Source: Catajapyx aquilonaris
Taxonomy: Eukaryota
NCBI GenBank assembly: GCA_000934665.2
Contig: KZ538197.1
Coordinates: 1-64,000 of the forward strand
Length of the DNA: 64,000 bases
Reading direction: 5' to 3'
Within the stretch, counting starts at the first letter, position 1, and each line of letters opens with the position of its first letter. The translations under genes and the position numbers were made by a program. The notes beneath the pieces were generated by a model. The model was not told the origin of the DNA, searched no databases, and saw nothing but the letters and a program-made list of their open reading frames with translations. Shown one piece after another: positions 5,742-51,600 of the stretch.

Positions 5742-8700
5742 TTATATGGCATCGATGTCCAGGTCATCCTCGCCATCCTCCTTAGCCAACTTGTTAGCTG
5801 CCACACTCTTATCAGTTCCTCGTGAAGATGCAGCACGCCCATTGTATTCGATCTGAAATTTTTTTGGCTATGTAAATAACATACTCAGAACTACTCACAT
5901 ATGCTTATTCAGAGTAGTCAGTAATTCCTGCATTTGCTTCAGATGGGGCAATTCCTTGCCCAATGGACGGTGTTATGCTATAATGGGTCAACCCACAAAA
6001 ATGTCAAAACTGAGTGAAGCCCAGGAACATACACCCAAAGTTGGCGAAATCTTTACACTTCTGCCACAAATGACTGAAAAGTTAACTTACAAATGGTGTG
6101 CATGGACGGTGTCATGCAATAATTTGTCAACCCACAAAAATGTCAAAATTGAGCTAAGCCCAGAACCTATGGGATCCTACTTCACTCTTTTAAAATCTCG
6201 CCGGTGAAATCTGCATACTTTTGCCATAACTGACCGAAAAGACCACTAAATTAATTTCACGGATATGACCTTCAAAGCCCTTTTTCTCAAAACTGGTCTC
6301 ATGTGGTTGACTTATTATTGCATAACAATGTCCAATTCTAAGACTGAAACACCATACATTATTTTTGGCTGTGGTGGAATATTTCAGAGTGCAAGAAAAG
6401 GCCACTTAAAGTGTAAGTCTCTCACTCTCTGTATGGACTGTCCTGTAGTTCCATAACTGACTGCAATAGTCAGTGAATGTGAATGTGTCTTATCAATAAA
6501 AACTGCCAAAACTAACCAGAAAGTCAAAAGACCCAGCAATAAAAAGAAGCAGAACAAAATGAATTATCAAAACCACAAGTCTAGCACTGACCTCTTCATC
6601 GCCCTCATCATCTTCGTTGCTTTCATCATCATCATCATTACTCTCCTCTTCTTCAGCTTCCTGCAACCACTTCAAGAAAGGCTCTGCCTTAGCATGTATC
6701 TCAGCACTCATCTCCTTGCTGACATACTTCTTCCCCACCTTCTTGCCCCATTCCAAAAGCGTTTCTTCCTCAATGATGTCAGCATCATAAAACACCTAGA
6801 GAAGCAGCATTAGTGACTGTCTGAGTCTACCAAAAAAACCAGCAACATACCTTTAATATGATGGGAACTTTGCTCAGCAGGACTTCCTTGTGTAGGTTGA
6901 TAGTCTGCTCTATGCCATGAAGCAAGTACTTCTGGGCTTTTTGATTATCATGGGTGAAACGTAGCAACAGGATTCGATGGGTCTTCACCTGAGTCAAGAT
7001 GTACTGAGTGAAAAGCAGTTCGGCAAGAATGACCGGAGCCTTGTGCTTGATCTCCAGACGTTCAGCCATAGCAAGAATCTCCTTGTCAGTTCCTTCCAGC
7101 TTTCCTTCGTCCCGTTTGGTCTTGACAAACTCGTAGAATAGATCAACACGCTCCTTTTCAGTTTTCTCCAGGTCGTCAGTAACTGCCAAGCTCTTGACTC
7201 CTTCACTCAAATCCTGCATGCGAGCACGCACAGCTTCCTCACTCACATCCACAGCCCAGTCATCATCGTCATCCTGAGGACAGACCAGGATGTGAGTTCA
7301 TACAAAAACTCAGTAGAAAACACAAAATGAAAGTGTGTCCCTCCAGCAAGCACATATCAACCCTTTGTCTCCCGTTGGATTATGCACTCTTTGGGTGGGG
7401 GTTTAAAAGTAGCACCCTAGGTGAAAATCATTGGATCTGGCACCATTGGTTTCGCTCTCGACTCATGCACAAGATGGGGCTGAAGCGTCCGAGACCGACA
7501 AACCCGAGTTGCATCTTGAGAGAGAGCTGTATCAACAGTGCAAAAAGAACTGTCCCAGTCATCCTGACGTGTGGGCTGGCCGCTCGACACACACCATGTA
7601 AATTACATGGTGTGTGTCGAGCGGGCAGCACACACATCAGGATGACTGGGACAATTCTTTTTGAACTGATGATACCGCCTCATATGCTATGCACGAGAAG
7701 GTGCTATGCACGAGAAGGTGCTATGCACGAGAAGGTGCTATGCACGAGTCATCCTATTGTGACATTTTTGTGGGTTTTTTTAGGCGGTTTCCACCCCTCG
7801 TAATAATCCAAGATAATTCTACATGATTGCTCACTCCCTCTGATAAATTATAAAAACATTAAGTGTCAGTTAAAATTGGTTTAAATGTCTAGTTTAAAGC
7901 AAGGTAATGTGAGCCACAAGGTGCAAGAAAAGGCGGCTCAGGTGGCAAGCGGGCACCACCTAGAGCTCAGAGCGGTCTGCCCGGCCAGGCCCGGCCAATT
8001 AGGAGCGAGAACACTTTTTCGACCGAAATGGCAGTGGGGGAGTTTGCCTACCCTTGACAGATTGTTCTGATTTTTCCCAGGGCGAAAAGTAAGTCGCAGA
8101 ATATCATAATTTTTTTAAGGGAGACAAAGGGTTAAGGTCCATATCTACATCATATTTCATAGGATTCAACCCATTGAACTTTTAAATTTCCCAACCAAAT
8201 GCAATGGCTTGAATTATGGCCTGATAGGAGTAGGGCTCTCTTTCCCAACTGTCCATTCAGAGCTTGAAGATGTTTCATTATTTTCTTAGATTTTCAAGAC
8301 TTTTGTAGCAGGAATATTCCAAGTAGGACAACTCTTCCAAAACAAAGAATTCCTGCAAGCAGCACCAGCAAGAAAACAATTTTGAAGTGACACCATTGAT
8401 ATGTAAACTAATAGCAAATTAAGAAGCAGACTAATTGCTTGCAACATATTGCATGATATTTCACAACACTAGAGTAGACATTGACAAGAAACTGGGAAAG
8501 ACTGAAATGCATTTCGTACCACTTAGCAGTGAGAACACCCTTTCGCCTGGATTTTATAGTGAGATTATAAATGAGTACCGTATGTCTAAACCTATGTTAT
8601 AAAAATTGCTGCCTGTGTACCCTGGTTATACTAGTTTTACCCCACCACCAGTTCAAGATATTAATACTCACATCATCTTTCTCTCCACCGCCAAATTCAC

Positions 8701-11700
8701 CATCAGAATTATCATCACGCCCTGTGCCAGACTGATCTCCATTCATTTCACCATTTTGTTTCTTAGCTCTCTTCCCTCGCTTCCCCTCAGTCAAGGAGGA
8801 ACCCTGGGCTGCAGGATTTTGGTCTGCAAATAACAATGTGCCACTTACAACATAGAAGTATTCATATCCTGTGTATAACAGAATTGAGCTCTCATCCATA
8901 TTGGTGGACATATCAGAGGCACTCACCCCTGTGAATTCACCTTCAAGTTTGGCATAAATCATACTAACCACCAAAAAGCCCATTATGTGGGATTTCCAAA
9001 GGTGTCTGTAACTGACTTTAAAGTGATGTGACAGGAGCACCCCACACAATATTTATCAGTACAGGAAAGATCCTGACTTGTCACGCACATTACATCCCAA
9101 ATGTTTAGGAAAGAAATTCTCAGTATCTATCCGATGCCAGACCACTTGGCAAGTATGTCAACATGGATGCTTCCATTCAATCTAATAACGTCATCGAAAA
9201 AGAATGCCCCAATTTTGAAAACTCTAACTCAAAAACTTGTCGACATATCTTAATCATTTCAGTTTTGAAATGCTCAGAAGTGTCTAAAGTTTTGGCCTTA
9301 CCATAATTTGTTTCAACATGAGCTCCATTTGCCGCTCGAAAAATTTGAGTACTGTAATTGGTATCATGCCAAACCCGCTCATGCATGTCTGGATTACCGT
9401 TGCAATCTTATCCCGTAGGTGCTGGTGATCTTTTCACCATACATGGGTCTTCACAAAAAAGTCCATCAGGGTAAGATCTGGGCTTCTGGAGGGGATAGGC
9501 ATAGCGAAATTTCTCATTAAAGACTTCGCACACTGGGAGGCTGAACACAATAAGTCGCCTCATCCACGAAACAGGAAAGTTTGTTTCGTGGATGAGGCGA
9601 CTTATTATGTGAATCATCAATAACAATGTGTGTGATGTAAAGACCCAAGATATCCATTACTATGGGACAGGATTGCAACGGTAACTCCAGATATGATTGA
9701 TAGGGTTTGGCACAGCCCACGGACACTTATACTACGTTCTGGCGTTATCACCTGCCGAAGCCTTTTGCAGCGGGTGCTCACCTGAGACAGCCATGAGACA
9801 TTTCGGAGGCCAGGATAAGTGGCGACCCTACCGGATTAGGCTGAACTTTATAGGTACCAAAGGGGAGGGCTACATGCTGGCCCAACATGGCCGACCGCGG
9901 CATGTTGGGCCCCCCAATGTAGCCCTCCCCTTTCGTACCTATAAAGTTCAGCCTTAGTCCGGTAGGGTCGTCACTTATCCTGGCCTCCGAAATGTCTCAT
10001 GGCGCTCTCAGGTGAGCAACTTCTGCAAAACACGTCGGCAGGGGGTGGGTGGGAGTGACCAGACCTTACTTATATGACCGTGGTTTGGCACAACACCGAT
10101 TACCACCTTTTTTATCTGCCAAGCAACACATGAAGATCATATCAAAACAAACTAAGTTGAGACCAAAACTTTAGACCTTTCTTAGCATTTCAAAATTTAA
10201 ATCATTCAGATATGTCTACAGGTTTCCAAGTTATAGGGTTTTCAAATTGGGACATTCTTTTTTGATGACCCTGTATATTTTTCTGTTCCTGTAACAGAAA
10301 AAACTAAATATCTTGAAATTCCTATGTACTGAGGAGCATAAAATAAGGAGAGGTACAACAATGAAGAACCACTGCTTAACACAAATTCTGTTCATTTAGC
10401 TATTTTCAGTATAACAATAAAGGTGACTTCTCGTGTTGACCGATAAAAGAAATGACCATTACTTCAATCCCATTTACGCCAATGCGTCACGATTACATCA
10501 TCAGCTTGGGGTACACATTTCCAAAGTAAATGGATGCTTTGCCATCTAATGGGGTCGTTACCAAGGTTCAAGGACGTTTTTAGCAGCCAAAATCATGATG
10601 TCTGAAAATCGAGGCTTAGAGATGCTATAGTGAGAGGTTTGTGATGGCACATTTTTAACAAATTCTCTATTTATCAAACCACTCTCTTCATAGGGTGTCT
10701 CAGCCTGGTTTTCCCAATGTGAAATTTTGGCTGCTAAAAATTTCCATGGGCCTCAGTTTTGTTGTTGTGGTTGTTTTTTTTTTCGTGATACCCCTTGCCA
10801 CCCCTTACGGGGTATTGGGGGGGGGGGGGNGGGGGGGGGCAACTAATTGCCCCAAGAATTATTGATGTAGTTCAATATTAACTGGTGCCTTGTACACTCA
10901 TACACCTGGGCCCATGGGCAGGGTAACTAGGAGGGGATGCACAAAGTGCAGTGCAAATGACTAATATGGGTACATTTTGTGAGCTCCCCAGGGTGGTTAT
11001 GTCAAGGATCACCACCCTAGACATAGCCAGAGACGACCCAACTCTGCATGAGATAAAGGGGGGGAAAGCCCGGGCTGGGGATCAGACCCGGGACCCTTAT
11101 ATCCGTGGGAGCATACGTTACCGCAGCGCCACTACGTCTCCCTAACCATGGGCCTCAGTCATGCCTGTATTATGTAATATAATTTTGACGTGGCTGATAC
11201 ATGGAATGAAATAAAGAGCCCTACACCATCGCTTATTTGGCCCACATGAGGAAGGGTATGCAGCTATTATGTAATGCCATGAGTAACCTAATACTGTACT
11301 TCATGATTGCTAAAAATCAGCTACCGGACAGTTGCACTAGCATGATTCAGCTTCAGGTACAGTTAGCCATTGTCATCATGACAAGAAACCAAACAACAAC
11401 AAGGGTACACCTGTAATTCAATCTGAATCTTGCCCTGGTGCAACTGGCCCTAAATTAGCTTAATTTCTGTAAGGGTCTTCCTAATTCAACAACCCTATAT
11501 AATGCCAATGCCCATTAATGCAGAACTTTGTGATGACAAGAGTGAAGGCAACATCTACATAATTATGTGCTCACCTGGTGGATTCTTGAGGATGAAAGTG
11601 ATAAGCTTGTGGCGTCCATCAAGGGGACCGTTGTATCCACAAGCTTTGCAGATTTGGATTACGACTTTCTTATGTTGGACACGGAGGCTAGTCTCAGGAT

Positions 11701-12086
11701 TTTCACATTCTGGGCAGAGGACAAATTTCTTGATAAAGCCATCGAGGAGGTCTTGTAATTTAACAGCATCGTGTGAGCCATTCACAATGAAGCGATCATT
11801 CTTAAAATCAAATTGGGTTTGTGCACCAAGCTCACAGCCAAAGTATTTGGTAGGATCTGAAAATGAGGAAGACTCGTAGTGAACTGCAAACGTTATTAAA
11901 CAAATTAAAATACTTGAACAGGATCTTACAGGTTGGGGGTCTGCTGAGTGCCTTGGCAATGTCTGCCATGTTGACGATAACCGTCTTGATGCCATTGCCC
12001 TTGCCTTCAACTTTGGCACAGAGGCGTGGCATCTTGTATCGGTAAAAGGCATCGCTAACACTGCGATTGACATTGACACTCCCCAT
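5742..12086 (-). CDS. eIF5: Eukaryotic translation initiation factor 5 (442 aa, 6 coding exons)
   Basis: Exons 12086-11930, 11856-11575, 8823-8672, 7273-6851, 6795-6592 and 5852-5742 are all GT-AG and phase-consistent (1329 nt). N-terminus [49 protein letters not shown] and CKACG zinc ribbon; W2 acidic/aromatic boxes ([29 protein letters not shown]); ends DDLDIDAI*. The start is in strong ACC-ATG-G context. Confidence 0.96.
5960..6465. repeat. Degenerate tandem repeat (~150-bp units, ~3 copies) in last eIF5 intron
   Basis: Recurring GTCAACCCACAAAAATGTCAAAA..GAG..AAGCCCAG and CCATAACTGAC motifs. Confidence 0.55.
7361..8131. mobile_element. Non-autonomous piggyBac-type element with internal palindrome and 17-bp tandem repeat
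   Basis: Perfect 13-bp TIRs CCCTTTGTCTCCC/GGGAGACAAAGGG flanked by TCAA and TTAA. Internal palindrome ~7530-7674. TGCTATGCACGAGAAGG x3.8 at 7685-7748. Confidence 0.75.
9177..10275. mobile_element. Tc1/mariner-derived fold-back element, interrupted by a nested MITE
   Basis: Inverted arms encode decayed transposase C-terminus (..[19 protein letters not shown]). Right end ACCCTGTA. Homologous to 32029-32749. Confidence 0.7.
9716..10083. mobile_element. Nested palindromic MITE
   Basis: Near-perfect fold-back centred near 9897. Ends CCACGG..CCGTGG, with TTTGGCACA repeated on both sides. Confidence 0.75.
10758..11145 (-). mobile_element. tRNA-derived SINE, family C, with 14-bp TSD
   Basis: TSD CCATGGGCCTCAGT at 10744-10757 and 11146-11159. 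Head GTGGCGCTGCGGTAACGTA..GGTCCCGGGT shared with the 30182 copy. A-rich tail. Confidence 0.8.
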
Positions 12087-12120
12087 GGTGAATGCTGTAC
12101 CTCTCCCACGGTCCCCTTAA

Positions 12121-14503
12121 TTAGTCACGTTTCTCTGAATGGCTGCAACTTCCTGTGTCGATTGCTGGAGAATTTTGAAGTTCTAGAAAGAAAAAGCATC
12201 CTTTAGTTCTTCTGCAACCGGCTACCCAAACCGCAAACATGGTTCATACCTGAAACTTATAGGTTCTTGCCGTTGAAAAAATATCATACACTTGGTATCC
12301 GAGTCCCGGAATGGCTCCGGTTGTAGATGGAAACTCCAAGAATTTCCTCGGGACAGAAGCACACCTGTAGAAGAGACACGAGTCAACAATGAATGTGTGA
12401 TACAATGAAATATTAACCTTTCTTTCACCAGATATACAACCAAGAGCAACACTAAGTTACAAGTACATGAAAATATGATAAGAATGTTCTTGTTGTGGAG
12501 TGTTTCTGAAACCTTTTACAGCACTTATTCCTCTCATTCCCAACACATCAATTCACACAACTTATAGTTGTACAAAATCAATTTGTAACTGAGATAATTC
12601 ATTACAAAGATCATCTGATCAATGCACAAAACAATTTGAAACTCAGCTGCCAGGCACAATTTCCAAAGCAGCAAAACACATGGTAAAACCTGTTGACAGT
12701 GTCAAAGTTCTCCACTCAATTAGGCCTGTATATGTATATTTACTGCATATGGTGCTACAGTGTAAATGAGGTCAATGGAGAATTCCTTTGACAGGCCAAT
12801 TAATAGGAAGCAGAACTCATCATCAGCCATGTTGTTTTAATTGACATTCTATTGGTCTACACTTCATGGTATGAAATTTCACTGTGGCCCACTGCAATAA
12901 TACCTACATCATTAATACATTCATCAAGGTCTTTCACATGCACCAATGGGAAGCTGCATGAGATGACAAATCAGTTTGCACATATATTCAAGCAAGATTA
13001 TTGATATGACACATTTCACGAAGTTGACACATGTGAGGCAAAATGAACTAAGCATGTTGGATTGACAAGTTGGACATTCTGACAAACAAGGAATTTCACC
13101 ATGATTCATCCAAGATTGACCTAGGAGCTCACCCTCTAAACATCAAGATTAATCTAATTGTCTGACACCTTGTATTAAAATTTGTTAATCACAGGTTAAT
13201 GGTGTTCCAAAAGTAGTTTCACTAATTACCACATCTCTGACCAATCATGACAGTCAGCTGTCCAAGCTAACACTGTTGGCTGATCTCTTCATGGAATGTA
13301 TTACAAGGGCCACTTTGAAGCTTTCCTTCATGGGGCAAAAAATATTGACAATACACTAACATTCGAGCATCACATTTGTTAGCATTATTCTTATCATGCA
13401 GTTTCCCTTTTGTTGTAGACTGAATCTGGCCTAAGAAGTCATCAGAATGCTTATACAGGGCTGGACATCTTTCAGGATGAGACTATACAAAACCCAATGC
13501 ATACTGCTGTCACTCTATGGCAGTGGATCTTATGTACTGCAGTGTTCCTAAACACTACCTCTTCCCTGTTTGCAAGCTCCTAACAGTTGGAATTTCTCTC
13601 AGTAAGATGTCAAAAGTGGCCAGTCAATACTATTCATATACATGGTAAAACTATCTTTACACTTGTAAATCATAATTGGCTTATAATCTCTAGTGCAGTT
13701 CATTCCCTGTAAGGAAATCATGCAAATCAAATTTTTGATCACTCTCTCAAATCTTTGGCATGAAGGCAGGAAAAGGTGACTGGACAAGGCAGAGTAATTA
13801 CTTGAAATGCATGGTTTATTCCAGTGTACTTAGTCTCCAAGATCACTGGAGTCCCCTGTCCCACTTCTAGATCAAATTTCCAATGCACAGTCTGCCTCTG
13901 CTGACAGTGCTGTCAGAGGAATTCCCCATCAGCAACAGTGGCAACTTTATGGCATATGTACACGATGTTTGGTCCAACAGTGGGACAGGTGTCTCCAGTG
14001 GTCTTGGGAGTAAGCACACACATGAATAAACCATGTAGTTCTAGTCATTATTGCATCCCTTTCACCTCTTCCCCCCCCCCCCCCACAGTACATGTCACCT
14101 GTCCATGTTTGCATACGTTGAATGGCTCACTTTCACTAGTGAACCTCATATATTTGGCAGGTACATTTTAGATTGAGGCAGGTTACTCCCAAGTCTGACA
14201 GCCGCCATCACCACGAGATGGCTCAGGTTGAAATCCGTACGACCCAGCCGCCAAATTACTAATCGATTTTCCCACGATTTTCTTAATGAATTCCTGCCCC
14301 CGCTGCATTATCTGCATTCCTCTACTGCACTCCAGCTCGAGAATTTTCAATTTCCGCTTCCGTTAAAAGCAATGAACGCCCAACACATACGTATCGTCTC
14401 TCATTACACACACGATTTTATTGCGTGATTTTGCATCATCTTCGATCTTACCAACGTAAATTCGAGTCCGGTCATCGGTACAGATGCCGCATCCTAGTGA
14501 CAT
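12121..14503 (-). promoter_or_regulatory. eIF5 5' leader exons with spliced poor-context uORF (37 aa)
   Basis: Minus strand GCGTTTT-ATG-TCA at 14503, donor G|GTAAGA after 14452, acceptor TTTCTAG| before 12182, TAA at 12123-12121. Confidence 0.6.
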
Positions 14504-15250
14504 AAAACGCAACCTACATGTTTGTCCTCAACATTTCTCCCGATAATAGAACAACTAAGATAACGGCCAGGGATGCCATTATCTCACGACTGTCAGCAGT
14601 TGTAGTGTACTACAAGTACACGTCATTTACCGGCAACACGCCGCATATTTCTGTCCTCCCTGGCCATCTACCAGGTCAAGCAGTCCCATATCACCCACTC
14701 GTTAACCACCACACCGCCAGTCCCAAAATGGCGCATTGGGCGGAACTTTTGAATCGCGCATCTGGTCACCTGCTCCTATCACCACGACCGGCCTTTGTGG
14801 TCCTTGACCCCTCCGCAAACAACTCACCTGTTCTGGACAGCACCATATGTTTCGAGCGTGCAATGGGATTTTCTCCCCTCGTGACGTCTCCTAAGTGCTG
14901 ACCGCCTCCGACACTCCTGTCGTCCCACCCGCCCCCCACCCCCTCCCAACCACTCTTTTTAATATAATTATTTTTTGTGGTCCGGCTCCTCCTGGGTCCA
15001 ACGACACCCCCGCACACAATCCAGAAGGTTCCCCGTGCCAAACTGCACAAGCCGGGTTTTGCACGCATGCACTCAAATGGCCAAAAACTATCGATTCGGC
15101 CAACTCCGCACCGTGGGTGGGGGTGGCAGGGGGTAGACGGTCGGGCTGGGCTGTTGGGTGGGGGCGGTGGGCATAATCTCGTGCGTCAAATGGCGTCACG
15201 CCAACACAAAATGGGCCACCTTAGATCACAATAGTAGCTCGACCACAAGG
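14200..15250 (-). promoter_or_regulatory. CpG-rich putative eIF5 promoter and first-exon region
   Basis: Abrupt switch to CpG-rich DNA near 14.2 kb. Inr-like TTAGTT (minus) near 14556. YY1/Pho-like AAATGGC motifs at ~14725, ~15075 and ~15188. Confidence 0.5.
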
Positions 15251-22099: not shown

Positions 22100-22345
22100 G
22101 ATACATCTTTAAAATCGGATCAGGGGGCATGCAGGCAAACTCGAGCATTACAGGTAAGTGACCATAGCTTAGCTAATATCGGATCCGCATGGGGGGGGGG
22201 GGGGGNNNNNNNNNNNNNNNNNNNNNNNNNNNNNNNNNNNNNNNNNNNNNNNNNNNNNNNNNNNNNNNNNNNNNNNNGGGACCGCTTTTCTGTAATGCTC
22301 GAGTTTGCCTGCATGCCCCCTGATCCGATTTTAAAGACGTATCCA
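22100..22345. repeat. Inverted repeat spanning a 72-N assembly gap (22206-22277)
   Basis: TCTTTAAAATCGGATCAGGGGGCATGCAGGCAAACTCGAGCATTACAG and its reverse complement flank the gap. Confidence 0.7.
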
Positions 22346-33237: not shown

Positions 33238-33582
33238 ATTATCAAATAACATGGAGTTGGACACAGGCAGGCTGAAAAAAATTACGTTGCAGCGAGCCTG
33301 TGCAGTATAGCAATTTAAGTCGTTACAATAGGTTTGAGTTATTTTACCACAGTGGCAATGACTTCTACTTTAGGTGCAAATAGATTACTTGCACTAACAT
33401 ATTTTTGCATTTCATTACAGCTGTTGAATTTTTCATACTGTGGTGCTATTAAGAAGACTGCCCGATTGCTTACTTTCAAGGTGAGAAAATGTGCCTGTGT
33501 AAGCTAACAGCATTATAATTTTGTATAATTTGAGTTACAAGTCTTTTTGCACCATTTCAGAAGTTTGGGAGAAGAAGGCAAA

Positions 33583-36500
33583 ATGTCATCACAGTACACT
33601 TGCTACACTTGCCATGTGATCTTTCGCAACCCCGAAGCGCAACGTGATCATTACAAGACTGATTGGCACAACTACAATTTGAAACGCAAGATTGCTGATC
33701 TCCCTCCTGTCCGAGCTGAAACCTTTAATGAGCGTGTTCTTGCTCAGAAGGCCATTGCCGAAACCACTGACAAGAAGTGCCCTGCTTATTGTGAAGCGTG
33801 TAAGAAATCTTTTGGCACCCAGAAAGCTTATGAGAGCCATCTCCAGTCCAAAAAGCACCAGGAAAACCTACTCCAAGGGCCAAAGACCAGTGGAAAATCA
33901 ACAATCTCGGGCAAGGCAACACCCACTGGAAAGGTCACACCTATTTCAGAAGATGACTCTGACATGGAAGTGGAAGAACTGGACTCTGATGAGTGGGATG
34001 AGATTGAAGGAGATCCTATTCCCATCAACACTTGCCTTTTCTGCATGTCTGAGAGTGAAGATCTAGAGGCAAACTTGGAACATATGAGCATCGAACACTC
34101 TTTCTTTGTTCCGGACCTGGAATATCTGGTTGACATTGCGGGACTAATGAAGTATCTTGGAGAGAAAGTGGGTCAAGGTGCCATGTGCCTATGGTGTAAT
34201 GACAGAGGCCGCTGTTTTGACTCGGTCCAGGCTGTCCAACAGCACATGCTAGACAAGGGTCATTGCAAGATGCTGTATGAGGGGGAGTCACTGTTTGAGT
34301 ATTCATCATACTATGACTACAGTGCCAGCTATCCAAACCAAGATCATGACAAGAATGAGGAAGTTGACTTACACATTCTCACTGCTGGTGACGACTGCGA
34401 ACTGGTTCTGCCTTCTGGAAAGAGCGTGGTTCATCGAGATCTTATGCGATATTACAGGTACTGTTGACAACCTCAGTTGAAAAATGCAGAGGAACATATC
34501 ATTTTATTCTAGGTAGCACAAGTTGGGATATTAGAATGTCTGACTCGCTTTGCGAGCCGGTGGGGCTCCGCCCCACCTGCGCGCCTTCGGCGCGGTGCCC
34601 GTATTCCGCCTAATCCATCCGGTTACAGAAATCAGTGACGTCACCGGTAGCGATGAGGAGTTTCCGAACGTGCCCTCTCTGACGTATCGTTCAAAACAGC
34701 GCTTGGGATGACAGGTGGGACCATCTGTGACGTATCATCCCACGACTCCCGGTTTGAGTAGTGTAAAGATCCCAGGGGGTGTATGGGAGGGGGTGGGCCA
34801 TTGTTCTCCTTCTTTACGACCATCTGCGGGCAAGGCCGCAAGTCGATCCGAGGCAGTTTGCGGACACATAAATTTGGCGATCTCGGGTTTGCGTCTAAAT
34901 TTAATTTGGCGATCTCCAAAATGGCTGGGAATTTTGCGATTATGAGGATTTTTGGAATCGGTATACCGGAGGCTAGAAAGGCAACGGTGCAAGTCCGAGG
35001 TCTCTACGACATCGGGAAGTGCGAAATCTTTTTCATCCTCCTCGTCGGATTGAGGCTTTATATATATTAGACTCGCTTTGCGAGGCGGGGGGGCTCCGCC
35101 CCCCCACACCCCCCCCGTGGGGCTGCGCCCCACGTGCGCGCCTTCGACGCGGTGCCCGTGTACCGCCTAATCCATCTGGTTACAGAAATCCATCCGTTTA
35201 CAGAACCCGTGACGTCACGGTCCACAAGGGTGTGGAGTATTAAAATGCGCCCTAGGTGACGTATCATGAAAAAAGGCTAGGTGGGATTAGAGTGAATGGA
35301 CCTGTCAGCGGGTGATGGATAGGGCTATTGTTCTCGGGCTTGAACGAACTTCTGCGGCTGGTTTGAGTGACAGCGGCTGGAGAAGAGGGGGGAGAGAAGG
35401 GGGTGGGCTATTGTTCTCGGGGATCCGGGGGAGTTTGCGGATACATTAATTTAGCGATCTCGGGTTTGCGTCTACATTTAATTTGGCGATCTCGAAAACG
35501 GCTGGGAATTTGGCGATTATGAGGATTTTTGGAATCGGTATGTCGGCGGCTAGAAATCCAACGGCGCAAGTCCGAGGTCTCTGCCACGCCGGGAAGTGCG
35601 AAATCTTTTTCATCCTCCTCCTCCTATGTATCCTCCTCCTCGTTTAGGGGCTTTATATATATTAGATATACCAGGTGTTCCAAGTTTGTGGGTCATTTTA
35701 TTTATCACTAATATCCGCTGAAATAGTTATTTTTATGTAGCTTGTTGTGCCCCAATCCAGGTGTCCCCATTACTCCCAGGTGGTTGAATGCAGAAGTGGC
35801 TGTAGCATAAGGCACCTGGTGAGGGATGCAACAAGCTACAAAAAAATAACAGCTTTGAGTGAAATTTCTTATAACTAAAAGGCCCCATGAACTTGGAACA
35901 CCCTGGATATGAGAAATAATTTTCATTTAGAAAATATTCAAGGCCAGTTTGCATGTGAATTCAGAGAGGCACTTATTTCTTGTGAAGTATGTCAGGGAAA
36001 TGTGTAATTATGTAGGCAAATTTCATTGGATTTTAACAATGTCCCATCAGAACAGCCGTAGAAATATCTGCTGTGTTTAGTAAAAGGCTGTACCTGCAAT
36101 GCAATGTGCAGTAAGGTCTGGTTGCTTCTCAGGATCCATTAGACCTCTTGCAGCTGCACTGGGCTCCAGCTGCAGTAATCTAATGGAGCTTGACAGTCAA
36201 CATCTGATATTACTGCACATTGCAGGTAGTACACTTTCAAAAGAATTGCAGAACTGGCCTAGCCTGTGAAGGCTCTGCATCCCATGAAACCCCATTTCTA
36301 TTTCCATAGTATGCAACAATGTAACCAAATATTCCTTTGTCAGTCTTCATCCTCCTTACTCCCAGGCCACCATCCACTCCTGCCTCCTGTTCTCTTCCAC
36401 TCCTCCCCCGTTCAGCTCACTCCTCCACACCTGATCCCCAGTGGCGGAACCCCTGCGAGCTGGTTTCCCACTCTTCTGCCGTACTCCTAGCAGGTACAGT

Positions 36501-42570: not shown

Positions 42571-48673
<6,103 letters not shown>

Positions 48674-51600
48674 CTGCAATAAAGAAATACAATTATTACT
48701 AATGCTCCGACAACAGGCCTCGACACCACTGGGGCTATGATCCCATGCGTGTTTGTGCACGCTGGCTTGAGATACACAATGAATACACATGCCAAATATC
48801 CTTCCGAACTATTAATAATGTAAATGCACCCTCGACAGCTTATTGTTCCCCGAGTCGCTTCATCTTTTTCCTATACCACATGAAATAATTTCCAGTCATA
48901 TAAAGCGTGGGCTTTGCACAATGGCACCCAACATGTGCACTGCCCATACAAAATTGCTAATCCTGTACCGGTACCCCCAGAGTCCACCATCATTCATTCA
49001 ACTCTGTCATGCAGTGTTGAACTTTTCCCACCACGTTCCGCGGTCTCTCAAGCCAATTACTCACTATCCTGGAATGCCCGCAACCTTGCTCACACCACAA
49101 CATATCTCCGGATAATTAGCGCAAAACGCCATCACCATAAGTTTTACATCCTCACTAGTACCCGATCTGAATTTCGATACTACATTCATGCGCCCACGTA
49201 CGACTCAATAACGACGGGCTTATTAAGAAAAGAAAAAGAAGTCGGCATTGAAAGAGCGCCTTACACGTGCGGAACCCTCTGTCGTGAATTCCTGTCATAC
49301 CCTCAGTTGCCAGTCATGATGCCTTATCTTTTTTTTTTTTTCGAAACGAGGTGACATCCAGGCATGGAAGCTGCCCATCGCGATCGACAACCAGGTCATT
49401 TTTCAGTCCGCCGCCTGAACGAATGACGCCATGAATGGAGCCAAGACTGAAATATCCACATCTGTCATGTCTATGCCTACTAGCAGCCTCCCAAATCGCA
49501 TTCTACACTCTCAGAATTTAAAACCACAACCGGTGAGTTATCTATTTTTGCAGGGTGTTCGTCTTTCACGCTTCATTGAGGTATTTTATTGCTATGCTAA
49601 TGCAAGTGCCAGTGTAGTCCCCCTAGTGGTTGAATCGGACCTCATGCTATGGACATGAGGGTAGGGGCATAAATTCGAGTTTCATTGCAATGCGACCTGC
49701 CCTGGTCACAAATGTTCGGCTAGAGGGGGGTGCCCCATTAGGAAACAAATTAAAGGACCCCCTCACATCCAGTAAGCTCTATTTATGCTTATACCAGCCG
49801 GAATTGATAAGTAATGACCGTGAGGTACACCCGACTTTTTTTTGACTGATTTTTAGTGAAGCTCCTGATGGTAACCCGGCTGTCACGCTTATGAGACCAT
49901 GATTGTGACCTAACATCGTCGCAAAAACAGTCGAGGACATGGCCCCCCAAAAAACCGCCACATGTTCCACTCATAGAGACCCAGGAGCGCTCTTTTTTTC
50001 TCTCTTCTGTTTTATCCCCACTCGACGGGAGCACTGCTGCAGGATAATCGGGGTCGCAGATGAAAGGCGTTCCCTAGTGACCTCGGTCACCTCGGTTTCC
50101 TCTACTCCAGCCCCCAGTCGCCACAGCACAGGCCCACTGACAAATGGCCGGACTCCCCGAATGTCTCCAACTTGGCCATCAGCGCTCATTTGGCCCGGAC
50201 TCCCGGGGATTCCTCGTTGGAAGGGGTCTGATAGACACGGGGAATCCACTCTAGGGCATATGCTGCTCTCTTTGGCATAGCACTGACTCATGTATAGTGC
50301 GGCCATTTTTTACCCCCTTTCTGCGAATGGGATTCACAATGGGAGAAGAATTAATTACGAATTAGTTGAAACGATTCAACCAATCGTCATGATCGGAGGG
50401 GAGGAGTGGAATAAATGGTGGAGTGCTAGGGGACTTTTAACTTGGTTCACTACAACTGGCATTTGAGTGCTTTTATTGGGGGCTATTTGTCAGGTGTAGC
50501 TTACACTTGTTGCTGTTCAATGTGTGCTCTCCCACACTCAATATCAACTTTGAATGGAACACAAATTTTGCGATAAATGTTCTAGTCATATGAGCTTCAA
50601 GAGCTTCAAGATCACTCCAATAATAGTCTGCTATTAGTGGACTTGACCAAACCCACTAATAGCAGTAAATTATAAGAATGGATCTGTCAGTGTTAAGACG
50701 AGTCTGCCTAATACAATTCATGTCATAAACATCGCATAATTACAAATCTGCTGCTATAATTTTCACAGCGGCATTAACTGGCGTCTGAGACTACCCCATC
50801 ATAATAAACGGGACGGCCTTTAAATATTTTTGTACCAAATTTTCAGAAGAGCCACGCCCAAAAGTTAACGCTCCCTCCCTGGTTTTATCCTCTAAAATAA
50901 AGAGACAATTTCTACAAGACGATTTATAGTTACATGCCTCTTTTTTTTTTTTCAAAAAAGAAAAACAATAAGTTCCTCTTTATGGGCGGACCATAACGAC
51001 CACTTAGGTACAGTACTTATTGGAAATCCCATTTGATGTTATCATTTGCTACCCTCGTGTCGACCTTGGATTACCCCCTACCCCCTCCCTTAAAAAAAAG
51101 TTCCCCCCTCCCCTCCCTTGCCTTTTGGTGCGGGACAAAACACCGACCTAAGATCAGCCCGACAATCACTCCCTCTTCGATTAATTTAATCCCCATTCCC
51201 CCGCTTTTTCGGAGCTCAACCCCCAGATTTACGACCTGGATGGATAAAAAGAGGGCTCTTAATACCCCCTCACCCATTAGTGTAGCCCCACTCTACTACC
51301 CCCCACCTCACTATTTTTTTGTATCTTTTTAGAAGCAGCCCCATGTGTGTCCAGTTGTACAAGCAGGCCAGGAGGCATCTTCGTGCTTCCCATAAATTAC
51401 TAGCATCCCCCTGAGCGGCCATAATCCTTAGAGTATCTGATATCTGGCCAAAAATCTCCGGGTGTCACCAGGTTCTTCAATATGGACAGTACTCAGCGTC
51501 ATCTACTGGCTCTATGTGCCAAAAACTGAATAATATTCGGCGCCATCTACTGTCTCCATGTGCCAAAAACTGGACCTTGAAGCTATTAGCCATCATATTC

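Follow-up and report, generated by a model that had tools for sequence, protein, structure and literature searches.

An arthropod-type eIF5 gene with a probable three-exon 5' leader and a conserved upstream reading frame split by two introns

The minus strand of the window, which is the whole 64,000-nt stretch of DNA that was analysed, carries an eIF5 gene. Searches with five eIF5 homologues (tblastn) placed its main ATG at 12086. The joined coding exons give 406 residues without a stop and match Pfam PF01873 with an E-value of 1.4e-23, and in a protein search 2036 of 2050 candidate proteins were eIF5-like at E ≤ 0.001. The W2-domain exon scanned alone had no Pfam match at E ≤ 0.01, though tblastn aligns it. 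The gene and its modelled leader comprise the following features.

6592..12086, minus strand: eIF5 coding region, exons 12086-11930, 11856-11575, 8823-8672, 7273-6851 and 6795 to at least 6592; placed by tblastn with the five homologues and by reading the splice sites
12084..12086, minus strand: main eIF5 start codon, ACC-AUG-G, an optimal context
12087..12182, minus strand: leader part of exon 3, with the conserved C-terminal peptide of the upstream open reading frame (uORF) at 12181-12128, its TGA at 12127-12125 and a 38-nt spacer
12117..12127, minus strand: TGAcTAAtTAA, stops in all three frames, read from the sequence
12183..12249, minus strand: intron 2, 67 nt, phase 2, splitting an Arg codon (AG/A)
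12250..12364, minus strand: exon 2, 115 nt, open in the uORF frame, with the in-frame upstream AUG uAUG2 at 12287-12285 (AAGUGU-AUG-A)
12365..14827, minus strand: intron 1 of the model, 2463 nt, phase 1, from the donor at 14828 to the acceptor TCTTCTACAG before 12364
14452..14503, minus strand: the uORF start proposed in an earlier note, TTT-ATG-T at 14503, 17 codons plus 1 nt, donor TTG/GTAAGA; most likely intronic, at best an alternative exon
14828..14846, minus strand: uAUG1 (14846-14844, AAACAU-AUG-G) and the 3' end of exon 1, with five more codons plus 1 nt and the donor CAG/GTGAGT
14847..15067, minus strand: ATG-free stretch directly upstream of uAUG1, presumed to be the 5' part of exon 1 and the core promoter

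The top eIF5 protein homologues are just 83% identical across a 93-aa exon, and therefore none is a close relative. In a quick eIF5 tree, the window falls inside a clade (SH-aLRT 98) together with 12 loci and all 11 of the 11 named insects, and outside the clade that holds the insects (99). Prawn, centipede, oyster and nematode all lie outside the 98 clade. This placement suggests, tentatively, a hexapod or a near relative within the pancrustaceans.

The leader was compared with the best 80 of 210 confirmed eIF5 loci (364 pattern matches), which come from metagenomes. In 54 of the 80, a complete ORF of 400 aa or more is present together with a leader, and these therefore look like cDNA. In the clade that contains the window, the leaders carry a uORF of 57-65 codons. 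A second in-frame uAUG lies 31-32 codons before the stop in most of them (L002, L010, L018, L031 and L032) and is absent from L003, L011, L023 and L024. The uORF stop is found in all 16 relatives compared, and it is UGA in all 16 and in the window.

The uORF peptides of nine relatives, used as tblastn queries, all match window positions 12187-12128, in one frame. At the nucleotide level the exon 3 leader has 11 matches at E ≤ 1 among the 80 loci, the best being L007 with 91% over 56 nt and an E-value of 5e-15, which, like those of the uORF-peptide searches, is relative to a small local database. The exon 3 peptide is 95% identical to L002 and to L018. The acceptor before 12182, ...CTTTCTAG, which the earlier note had used, is present in the sequence and supported by this homology.

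Farther upstream, the uORF peptide of L002 matches window positions 12356-12249 with 47% identity (E 4.8e-11 jointly with its exon 3 match, on the same small-database scale), and those of L011, L023 and L003 match there as well. This is exon 2, which was overlooked in the earlier note. Its donor CAG/GTATGA scores 8.1 on an approximate matrix, as for all donor scores given here. The genomic loci L007, L071 and L028 contain exon 2 homologues with equal boundaries, and their exon boundaries and intron phases equal those of the window model: both the phase-1 position of intron 1 and the position of intron 2, between ...IS[FY] and R-TSKF..., are matched in the three loci. In exon 3 the model frame is free of stops, and 10-15 of its 15 codons are identical to those of 10 loci. 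Comparison with relatives shows the gene identity, exons 2 and 3 and the reading frame that joins them.

Two short motifs taken from relatives match near the end of exon 1. The motif CATATGGTNCTGTCC, derived from L024, has a single exact match in the window. The motif AGAACAGGTRAGT, derived from L028, also has a single exact match, adjoining CATATGGTNCTGTCC, and its exon part is common to L011. The numbers of matches expected by chance are 0.01 and 0.14. Exon 1 of L028 reads ...TAT-ATG, six codons and G/GTAAGT, and that of the window reads ...CAT-ATG, five codons and G/GTGAGT; both exons end in AGAACAG. With a score of 12.9, the donor at 14828 ranks first among the 15 donors of at least 6 between 15300 and 12190, and of the 22 ATG-to-donor candidates listed, only the pair 14846/14828 combines phase 1 with a donor above 8. 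The 222 nt between the ATGs at 15068 and 14846 form the longest gap among the 110 minus-strand ATGs from 16000 to 12000, where the mean spacing is 36 nt, and this ATG-free stretch is contained in a CpG-rich island of about 15700-14200. Homology and splice-site strength therefore point to this exon 1 and to uAUG1, which is the first AUG in six of the nine cDNA-like leaders of relatives. In L007 and L071 the upstream sequence at hand, 1.5 and 2.1 kb, gave no convincing candidate for exon 1.

In the resulting model, the uORF would run from uAUG1 at 14846 across intron 1 into exon 2 and across intron 2 into exon 3, ending at the UGA at 12127-12125. It has 63 codons from uAUG1 and 31 from uAUG2. 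The stop lies 38 nt ahead of the main AUG, so the uORF is a separate ORF and not an N-terminal extension of eIF5. The context of uAUG1, CAU-AUG-G, has a pyrimidine at -3, which is C and not U, and a G at +4; two relatives, L023 and L024, have the same context. The context of uAUG2, UGU-AUG-A, fits the weak-context rule, with no purine at -3 and no G at +4. The main AUG at 12086 stands in the good context ACC-AUG-G that would be expected of an eIF5 gene with an autoregulatory uORF.

The substitution pattern in exon 3 follows the modelled frame. The window differs from L007, L071 and L018 by 6, 8 and 8 nucleotides in 48 nt, all synonymous and none non-synonymous, and the variable columns number 8, 5 and 15 of 16 at codon positions 1, 2 and 3. 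The last 16 residues of the uORF are identical in the window and these three loci, and the last 19 are identical for L007 and L071. In the eIF5 N-terminal domain, identity to the same three loci is only 70-82%, and the upstream half of the uORF peptide is much less conserved (47-58%). By this comparison, purifying selection acts strongly on the last 16-19 residues of the uORF, and the C-terminal uORF peptide is far more conserved than eIF5, the protein that would be regulated. A synonymous excess within a conserved peptide is the mark of a conserved-peptide uORF (CPuORF), and the leader displays it.

Similar leaders are well described. In human cells, overexpression of eIF5 raises initiation at the poor-context uAUGs of eIF5 and lowers translation of the main ORF, and eIF1 has the reverse effect (Loughran et al. 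2012, PMC3326321). The same paper describes uAUGs as near universal in 337 eIF5 homologues, and gives a length of 50 or more codons for the longest eIF5 uORF of invertebrates, which the 63 codons found here exceed. The human EIF5 leader resembles the present one in having weak-context uAUGs before an optimal-context main AUG, and in that its longest uORF begins a few codons before the end of a non-coding exon 1 and is split by an intron, 1056 nt long in human uORF1; the intron is in phase 1, G/GT, in both (PMC3326321). The two leaders differ in other respects. Human EIF5 has three uAUGs and a uORF1 of more than 90 codons that overlaps the main ORF (PMC3326321), whereas the window has a pair of in-frame uAUGs, and its uORF, 63 codons long, holds two introns and stops 38 nt short of the main ORF. 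The context of uAUG1 is GGGUUU-AUG-U in human and AAACAU-AUG-G in the window; across the homologues of that paper, a U stands at -3 of uAUG1 in 98.8%, and a G at +4 does not occur (PMC3326321). The functional tests of feedback described there were made in human cells only.

The same paper covers arthropod eIF5 uORFs. They too have two uAUGs, the second in GUG[U/C]-AUG-A (PMC3326321 Fig. S1B), to be compared with AAGUGU-AUG-A here; the wider context of uAUG2, AAGUGUAUGA, resembles that of the arthropod second uAUG, AGGUGUAUGA (PMC3326321 Supplementary Fig. S1). Their longest uORF likewise has at least 50 codons, and its peptide is conserved phylum-wide (PMC3326321 Fig. S2, a logo of 25 sequences), a likeness at the level of conservation. 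The usual arthropod uAUG1, UUUUAU-AUG-A, differs from that of the window with its C at -3 and G at +4, as in L023 and L024 (PMC3326321). Plant eIF5, homology group 7 of Jorgensen & Dorantes-Acosta 2012 (PMC3426882), also has a conserved-peptide leader uORF with a proposed link to start-codon selection. It belongs to another kingdom, however, its authors propose an unknown signal molecule, and the likeness is one of description (PMC3426882). The autoregulation of eIF1 and of BZW1/BZW2 (5MP) differs in that the AUG in weak context starts the main ORF itself and the response has the opposite sign (PMC5823381, PMC3326321).

We consider it probable, at about 0.75, that the eIF5 gene of the window is of arthropod type, that its three-exon 5' leader carries one conserved 63-codon uORF and that it controls itself through weak uAUGs. 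By homology, the eIF5 self-regulation by way of weak uAUGs that Loughran et al. 2012 described would hold here, and we infer that in this animal the leader is transcribed and spliced as modelled, that the uORF is translated and that the feedback operates. The frame is an already known upstream reading frame, re-mapped, and therefore an ordinary case of a described control. As one further eIF5 gene with a well-described feedback loop, it matters little by itself.

As in the human eIF5 work, scanning ribosomes would mostly skip the weak upstream AUGs. Abundant eIF5 would make the choice of start codon less stringent and thereby raise initiation at the uAUGs. The uORF is long, whether counted from uAUG1 or from uAUG2, and therefore few of the ribosomes that translate it would restart at the main AUG, so that eIF5 synthesis would fall. 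High eIF1 would have the opposite effect to high eIF5. Given the strong purifying selection on its last 16-19 residues, the peptide probably contributes to the block in its own right; it may slow termination or prevent reinitiation.

The peptide might even be the main agent. The uORF could act mainly through its C-terminal 16-19 residues, which would stall the ribosome from within the exit tunnel when it reaches the UGA or comes close to it. Such a stall would obstruct scanning ribosomes or keep them from reinitiating, perhaps in response to a signal, and it could either accompany the context sensor or replace it. We regard this as possible but do not favour it. The residues identical among the window, L007, L071 and L018, the purely synonymous differences, the lower conservation of both the upstream half of the peptide and the eIF5 N-terminal domain, and the UGA that ends every uORF compared are all consistent with it, and conservation at the C-terminus is typical of known arrest peptides (PMC7530721). 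However, the conserved human eIF5 uORF was among those tested, and the account of Takahashi et al. 2020 (PMC7530721) does not place it among the eight that act sequence-dependently; eIF5 regulation was also judged not to depend strictly on a conserved peptide (PMC3326321). More specifically, the ...SKFSSNRHRKLQPFR... block and the UGA could form a nascent-peptide arrest or termination-stall element, which would turn the uORF into a roadblock that depends on the peptide and possibly responds to a signal, and not just a length-dependent trap; we think this rather unlikely. In the literature searched, no experimental data on the arthropod eIF5 uORF peptide were found, and eIF5 is absent from the main text of Hayden & Bosco 2008 (PMC2276209); the supplement of PMC7530721 may list a fly eIF5 uORF.

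Among the loci, those of more distant animal clades again show a basic RH(R)K-like core in their eIF5 uORFs. If the arrest element were true, this recurrence would mean that it is an old feature.

Other explanations concern the region between exon 1 and exon 2. The earlier note had placed the uORF start at 14503, and the CGTTTT-ATG-T at 14503-14501 and the donor TTG/GTAAGA after 14452 are indeed in the sequence. Both fall within intron 1 of the model, and most likely this uAUG is intronic. The piece could instead be an alternative part of the leader, either a second first exon, driven by a CCAAT-containing stretch near 14740, or a 42-nt cassette (14493-14452), joined to exon 2 to give 74 or 77 codons. 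The donor at 14452 is in phase 1, like that at 14828, and therefore the ATG at 14503 joined to exon 2 would read the conserved frame for 74 codons; one donor in three is in phase 1 by chance, however. The length of the cassette, 42 nt, is divisible by three and its frame is open, and the acceptor-like ...TGTCACTAG/G before 14493 scores 3.0 on a crude, home-made scale on which the real acceptors score 2.2-4.6. The CpG-rich island covers this stretch as well. Against these points, such an exon finds no support in homology, and with it the N-terminal part would exceed that of every relative by 11-14 residues. A first exon from about 14700 would hold up to ten AUGs, some of them strong, in contrast with the relatives in which uAUG1 is the first AUG, and the donor at 14452 (6.85) is weak next to that at 14828. 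On balance this alternative seems improbable.

The earlier note itself had transcription start upstream of 14503 and the donor at 14452 joined directly to 12182, with the resulting 37-codon frame acting as a candidate sensor of start-codon stringency and a 29-codon frame from CCG-ATG-A at 14475 in addition. The features exist as described: the join does give 37 codons ending at a TAA (12123-12121), 34 nt before ACC-ATG-G, and the 14475 frame does stop before the main ATG. Moreover, UUU-AUG-U fits the published signature of uAUG1, U at -3 and no G at +4 (PMC3326321), better than the uAUG1 of our model does, and the first coding intron has the same donor hexamer, GTAAGA. The window contains TTTATGT as such 16 times, and shuffles give an expectation of 16.0. 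Cases whose frame is open to a donor are rare, with two in 128 kb of strand and about 0.04 expected in 2.4 kb, and therefore chance does not fully explain the case at 14503. Weak-context ATGs open to a donor of like strength, by comparison, number about 0.7-0.9 per kb per strand across the window, and seven lie in the 2.46-kb stretch. As signs of a genuine element, the features described in the note are weak.

The conservation predicted for this start in related species did not appear, as none of the 80 loci matches its exon at the nucleotide level at E ≤ 1. If exon 2 is skipped, exon 3 is read in a frame in which only 3-10 of 15 codons are identical to those of the 10 loci and which contains stops in four of them; the third frame, that of the ATG at 14475, is stopped in all 10. 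The 37 codons fall short both of the 50 or more of invertebrate eIF5 uORFs (PMC3326321) and of the 57-65 of the relatives. Other ATGs, left out of the earlier note, lie nearby: those at 14519 (AAC-ATG-TAG), 14534 and 14579 (ATA-ATG-G, a strong context) lie 16, 31 and 76 nt upstream of 14503, and another is at 14492 (AGG-ATG-C). A far stronger donor lies upstream, at 14828. That the proposed frames stop before the main ATG is uninformative, because TGAcTAAtTAA at 12127-12117 closes all three frames, and any frame would end there. We therefore consider this reading very unlikely. The general proposal, that an eIF5 gene here carries a spliced leader uORF of the kind described by Loughran et al., stands by homology, but the note was probably wrong about its uAUG, its first exon and how it is spliced.

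For annotation, the case illustrates that intron-split leader uORFs can not be read by eye from one genome. The weak-context motif was a decoy, and comparison with the transcripts of relatives changed the first exon and the frame and added an exon.

That the conserved block of exon 3 is an RNA element (a structure or a protein-binding site) and not a translated frame is hardly credible: its nucleotide identity to L007, L002, L071, L018 and L006 is 83-91% over 54-59 nt, but the variation is concentrated in one frame at third codon positions, of which 15 of 16 vary, compared with 5 of 16 at second positions, the differences to L007, L071 and L018 are all synonymous, that frame is open in 10 of 10 loci and the other two are not, and no Rfam family reached its gathering score anywhere within the window.

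The three AUGs of the modelled leader and main ORF each follow a stretch free of ATGs. Gaps of 222, 181 and 113 nt, which are the longest or near-longest, end at 14846, 12287 and 12086, the positions of uAUG1, uAUG2 and the main start codon.

The eIF5 gene lies on the minus strand, as shown by tblastn alignment of five eIF5 homologues to the window, and its second coding exon matches Pfam PF01873 (E 1.4e-23); the gene identity given in the earlier note is thus confirmed. Searching a database with 93 residues of this exon gave 2050 candidates, of which 2036 were eIF5-like proteins at E<=0.001. The closest protein displays 83% identity, and therefore no near relative is recorded; the highest full-length identity is 70%, with termite. 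In a quick maximum-likelihood tree comprising named insects, other animals and metagenome loci, the window eIF5 groups with the 11 named insects, all of them, and with 12 loci (SH-aLRT 98); within that clade it branches outside the insects' own clade. The prawn, centipede, oyster and nematode proteins fall outside the larger clade. The final eIF5 frame continues beyond a donor-like GAG/GTCAGT (~6591) into a hydrophobic read-through (6493-6591, minus strand), and the true C-terminus is probably located in one more exon.

Features of the predicted eIF5 leader and of the gene, all on the minus strand
14846: uAUG1, AAACAT-ATG-G, six codons upstream of the donor at 14828 (sequence)
12364-12250: exon 2, 115 nt, acceptor TCTTCTACAG/, donor CAG/GTATGA (matches to relatives' peptides)
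12287: uAUG2, AAGUGU-AUG-A, in frame, 31 codons ahead of the stop (exon 2 sequence)
12127-12125: stop TGA of the upstream open reading frame (uORF), 38 nt before the main AUG
12086: main eIF5 start, ACC-ATG-G (sequence)
12086-11930, 11856-11575, ~8823-8672, 7273-6851, 6795 onward: eIF5 coding exons (tblastn, five homologues)

Metagenome contigs were scanned with the eIF5 exon, and the best 80 of 210 confirmed loci were compared. Of these 80 loci, 54 look like cDNA, the contig spanning a leader and a complete eIF5 ORF of 400 residues or more. Leaders in the window's clade bear a uORF of 57-65 codons. The uORF peptides of these relatives match the window twice by tblastn, in a single frame. Positions 12356-12249 are matched by those of L002 (47% identity), L003, L011, L023 and L024, and 12187-12128 by all nine queries, L002 and L018 with 95% identity; the joint E-value of both L002 matches is 4.8e-11. 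The upstream match points to exon 2, which is left out by the direct splice from 14452 to 12182 proposed previously. Exon boundaries and intron phases are identical in the genomic loci L007, L071 and L028. Inclusion of exon 2 shifts exon 3 by one base from the frame of the earlier note, so that it encodes the block TSKFSSNRHRKLQPFR. An in-frame second uAUG in GUG[U/C]-AUG context occurs 31-32 codons ahead of the stop in L002, L010, L018, L031 and L032; L003, L011, L023 and L024 are without it. This layout is the arthropod pattern that Loughran et al. 2012 (PMC3326321) list in their Supplementary Fig. S1.

Over 15 codons, the 63-codon frame shows 10-15/15 identities and is uninterrupted in 10 loci. 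The 37-codon peptide of the earlier note fares otherwise as a conserved unit: its exon 3 frame shows 3-10/15 identities, with stops in 4 of 10 loci, and the frame opened by its second ATG at 14475 has stops in all 10. Over 48 nt there are 6, 8 and 8 differences between the window and L007, L071 and L018, respectively, and every one is synonymous; among 11 sequences, third positions vary in 15 of 16 codons versus 5 of 16 for second positions. These synonymous-only differences and the frame comparison indicate, at the sequence level, that what has been conserved is a translated peptide other than the one proposed. The stop is UGA in the window and in 16 of 16 loci compared; these loci are mutually related, hence the stops are not 16 independent events. 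That the final 16-19 residues are so strictly conserved, and that the stop is always UGA, suggests that the peptide adds to the translational block. Counting against this, the conserved uORF of human eIF5 was assayed and is absent from those reported as sequence-dependent in the accessible part of PMC7530721. The literature searched yielded nothing on the arthropod eIF5 uORF peptide.

The first exon of this uORF probably ends at 14828. The donor there, CAG/GTGAGT, is the strongest in the region (12.9 on an approximate scoring matrix, versus 6.85 for the donor of the earlier note), ranking first of 15 donors scoring at least 6 between 15300 and 12190, and its phase 1 is that required by the conserved frame. 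The genomic exon 1 of L028 reads TAT-ATG, six codons and G/GTAAGT; its end, AGAACAG, is exactly that of the window, and the cDNA-like L003 bears out the splice. L024 starts with CATATGGTTCTGTCC, the window counterpart being CATATGGTGCTGTCC. The L024 and L028 motifs each match the 64-kb window once and without mismatch, adjoining at 14849-14822, with 0.01 and 0.14 matches expected. Across the 4 kb examined (mean ATG spacing 36 nt), no ATG-free gap is longer than the 222 nt upstream of 14846; the gap ahead of 12287 comes second and that ahead of 12086 fifth. The uAUG1 is the contig's first AUG in six of nine relatives, and the resulting uORF of 63 codons equals those of L010, L031 and L032.

The elements described in the earlier note are present in the sequence: CGTTTT-ATG-T at 14503, the donor TTG/GTAAGA after 14452 and the acceptor CTTTCTAG/ before 12182, whose joining yields the 37-codon frame as quoted, ending at TAA 12123-12121, 34 nt ahead of the main ATG. 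Likewise CCG-ATG-A at 14475 opens a 29-codon frame closed upstream of that ATG. Set against chance, these features stand out only a little. The window contains 16 copies of TTTATGT where 16.0 are expected, and weak-context ATGs open to a donor of comparable strength number about 0.7-0.9 per kb per strand, with 7 cases in the relevant 2.46 kb; the precise combination of TTTATGT with a donor is less frequent (2 cases per 128 kb of strand). A stop ahead of the main ATG is uninformative, since TGAcTAAtTAA (12127-12117, minus strand), with one stop codon per frame just 5' of the eIF5 start, closes every upstream frame; this triple stop is not common to the relatives examined. The earlier note leaves out the ATGs that closely precede its proposed uAUG, at 14519 (ATG-TAG), 14534 and 14579 (in strong context), and the one at 14492, which falls between the two it chose.

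The ATG at 14503 most likely lies in intron 1 (14827-12365), judging from the exon 1 evidence at 14828 and 14846, the lack of any nucleotide match to its exon among the loci (versus 11 for the exon 3 leader), and the 74 codons that its splicing to exon 2 would give, with an N-terminus longer than any relative's. That it is part of an alternative first exon, or of a cassette at 14493-14452, is unlikely. The latter stretch, between an acceptor-like TGTCACTAG/G and the donor after 14452, is open in the uORF frame, and its 42 nt, a multiple of three, would preserve that frame if spliced in, but nothing besides the site, length and open frame speaks for it. With exon 1 ending at 14828, the ATG-TAG (14514-14519, minus strand; start then immediate stop, A at -3, 16 nt upstream of the ATG at 14503) would also fall inside intron 1.

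An abundance of eIF5 makes start-codon selection less stringent in human cells, raising initiation at weak eIF5 uAUGs about 4-6-fold and reducing main-AUG translation, with eIF1 acting oppositely; nearly all of 337 eIF5 homologues have uAUGs (Loughran et al. 2012, PMC3326321). The same paper reports that a 1056-nt intron splits human uORF1, and therefore a spliced eIF5 uORF is not new. By analogy, sensing in this gene would fall to the two in-frame uAUGs, CAU-AUG-G and UGU-AUG-A, the uORF length (63 or 31 codons) would limit reinitiation, and ACC-AUG-G would receive ribosomes leaking past the uAUGs. Unlike the signature published there for eIF5 uAUGs, uAUG1 has G at +4. The observation of the earlier note is confirmed in part, and the feedback circuit proposed there is partly supported: a circuit of this known kind appears to be present, with the uAUG, first exon, exon count and frame all differing.

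In L003 and L028 the uORF stop overlaps the main start codon (A-TGA), a termination-reinitiation-like layout; the window instead has a 38-nt spacer. In a second group (L015, L025, L026, L030, L038, L040, L043, L048 and L050), which the quick tree puts in the oyster's clade, the long uORF extends 70-73 nt into the main ORF, as it does in vertebrates, and bears a related basic RHK-type motif.

The CpG observed/expected ratio is 0.7-1.6 from ~15700 to 14200 (minus strand) and 0.08-0.10 from 14200 to 13800. Such a CpG island around the 5' end of eIF5, amid CpG-depleted sequence, suggests a methylated genome. At ~14070-14085 the minus strand has a stretch of about 14 G. In total, 75 N mark gaps in the assembly or ambiguous bases, at 10830, 22206-22277, 31465 and 53475. 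Two further genes or frames were recognized, both in keeping with an animal genome.

Features elsewhere in the window
47220-48870, minus strand: Delta/Serrate/Jagged-type Notch ligand gene (ORFs with DSL, E 4e-20, MNNL, EGF and Jagged/Delta-type EGF domains)
33529-34464, plus strand: 312-residue open frame, C2H2 zinc finger (zf-C2H2_2, E 4e-36; JAZ-type zinc finger)
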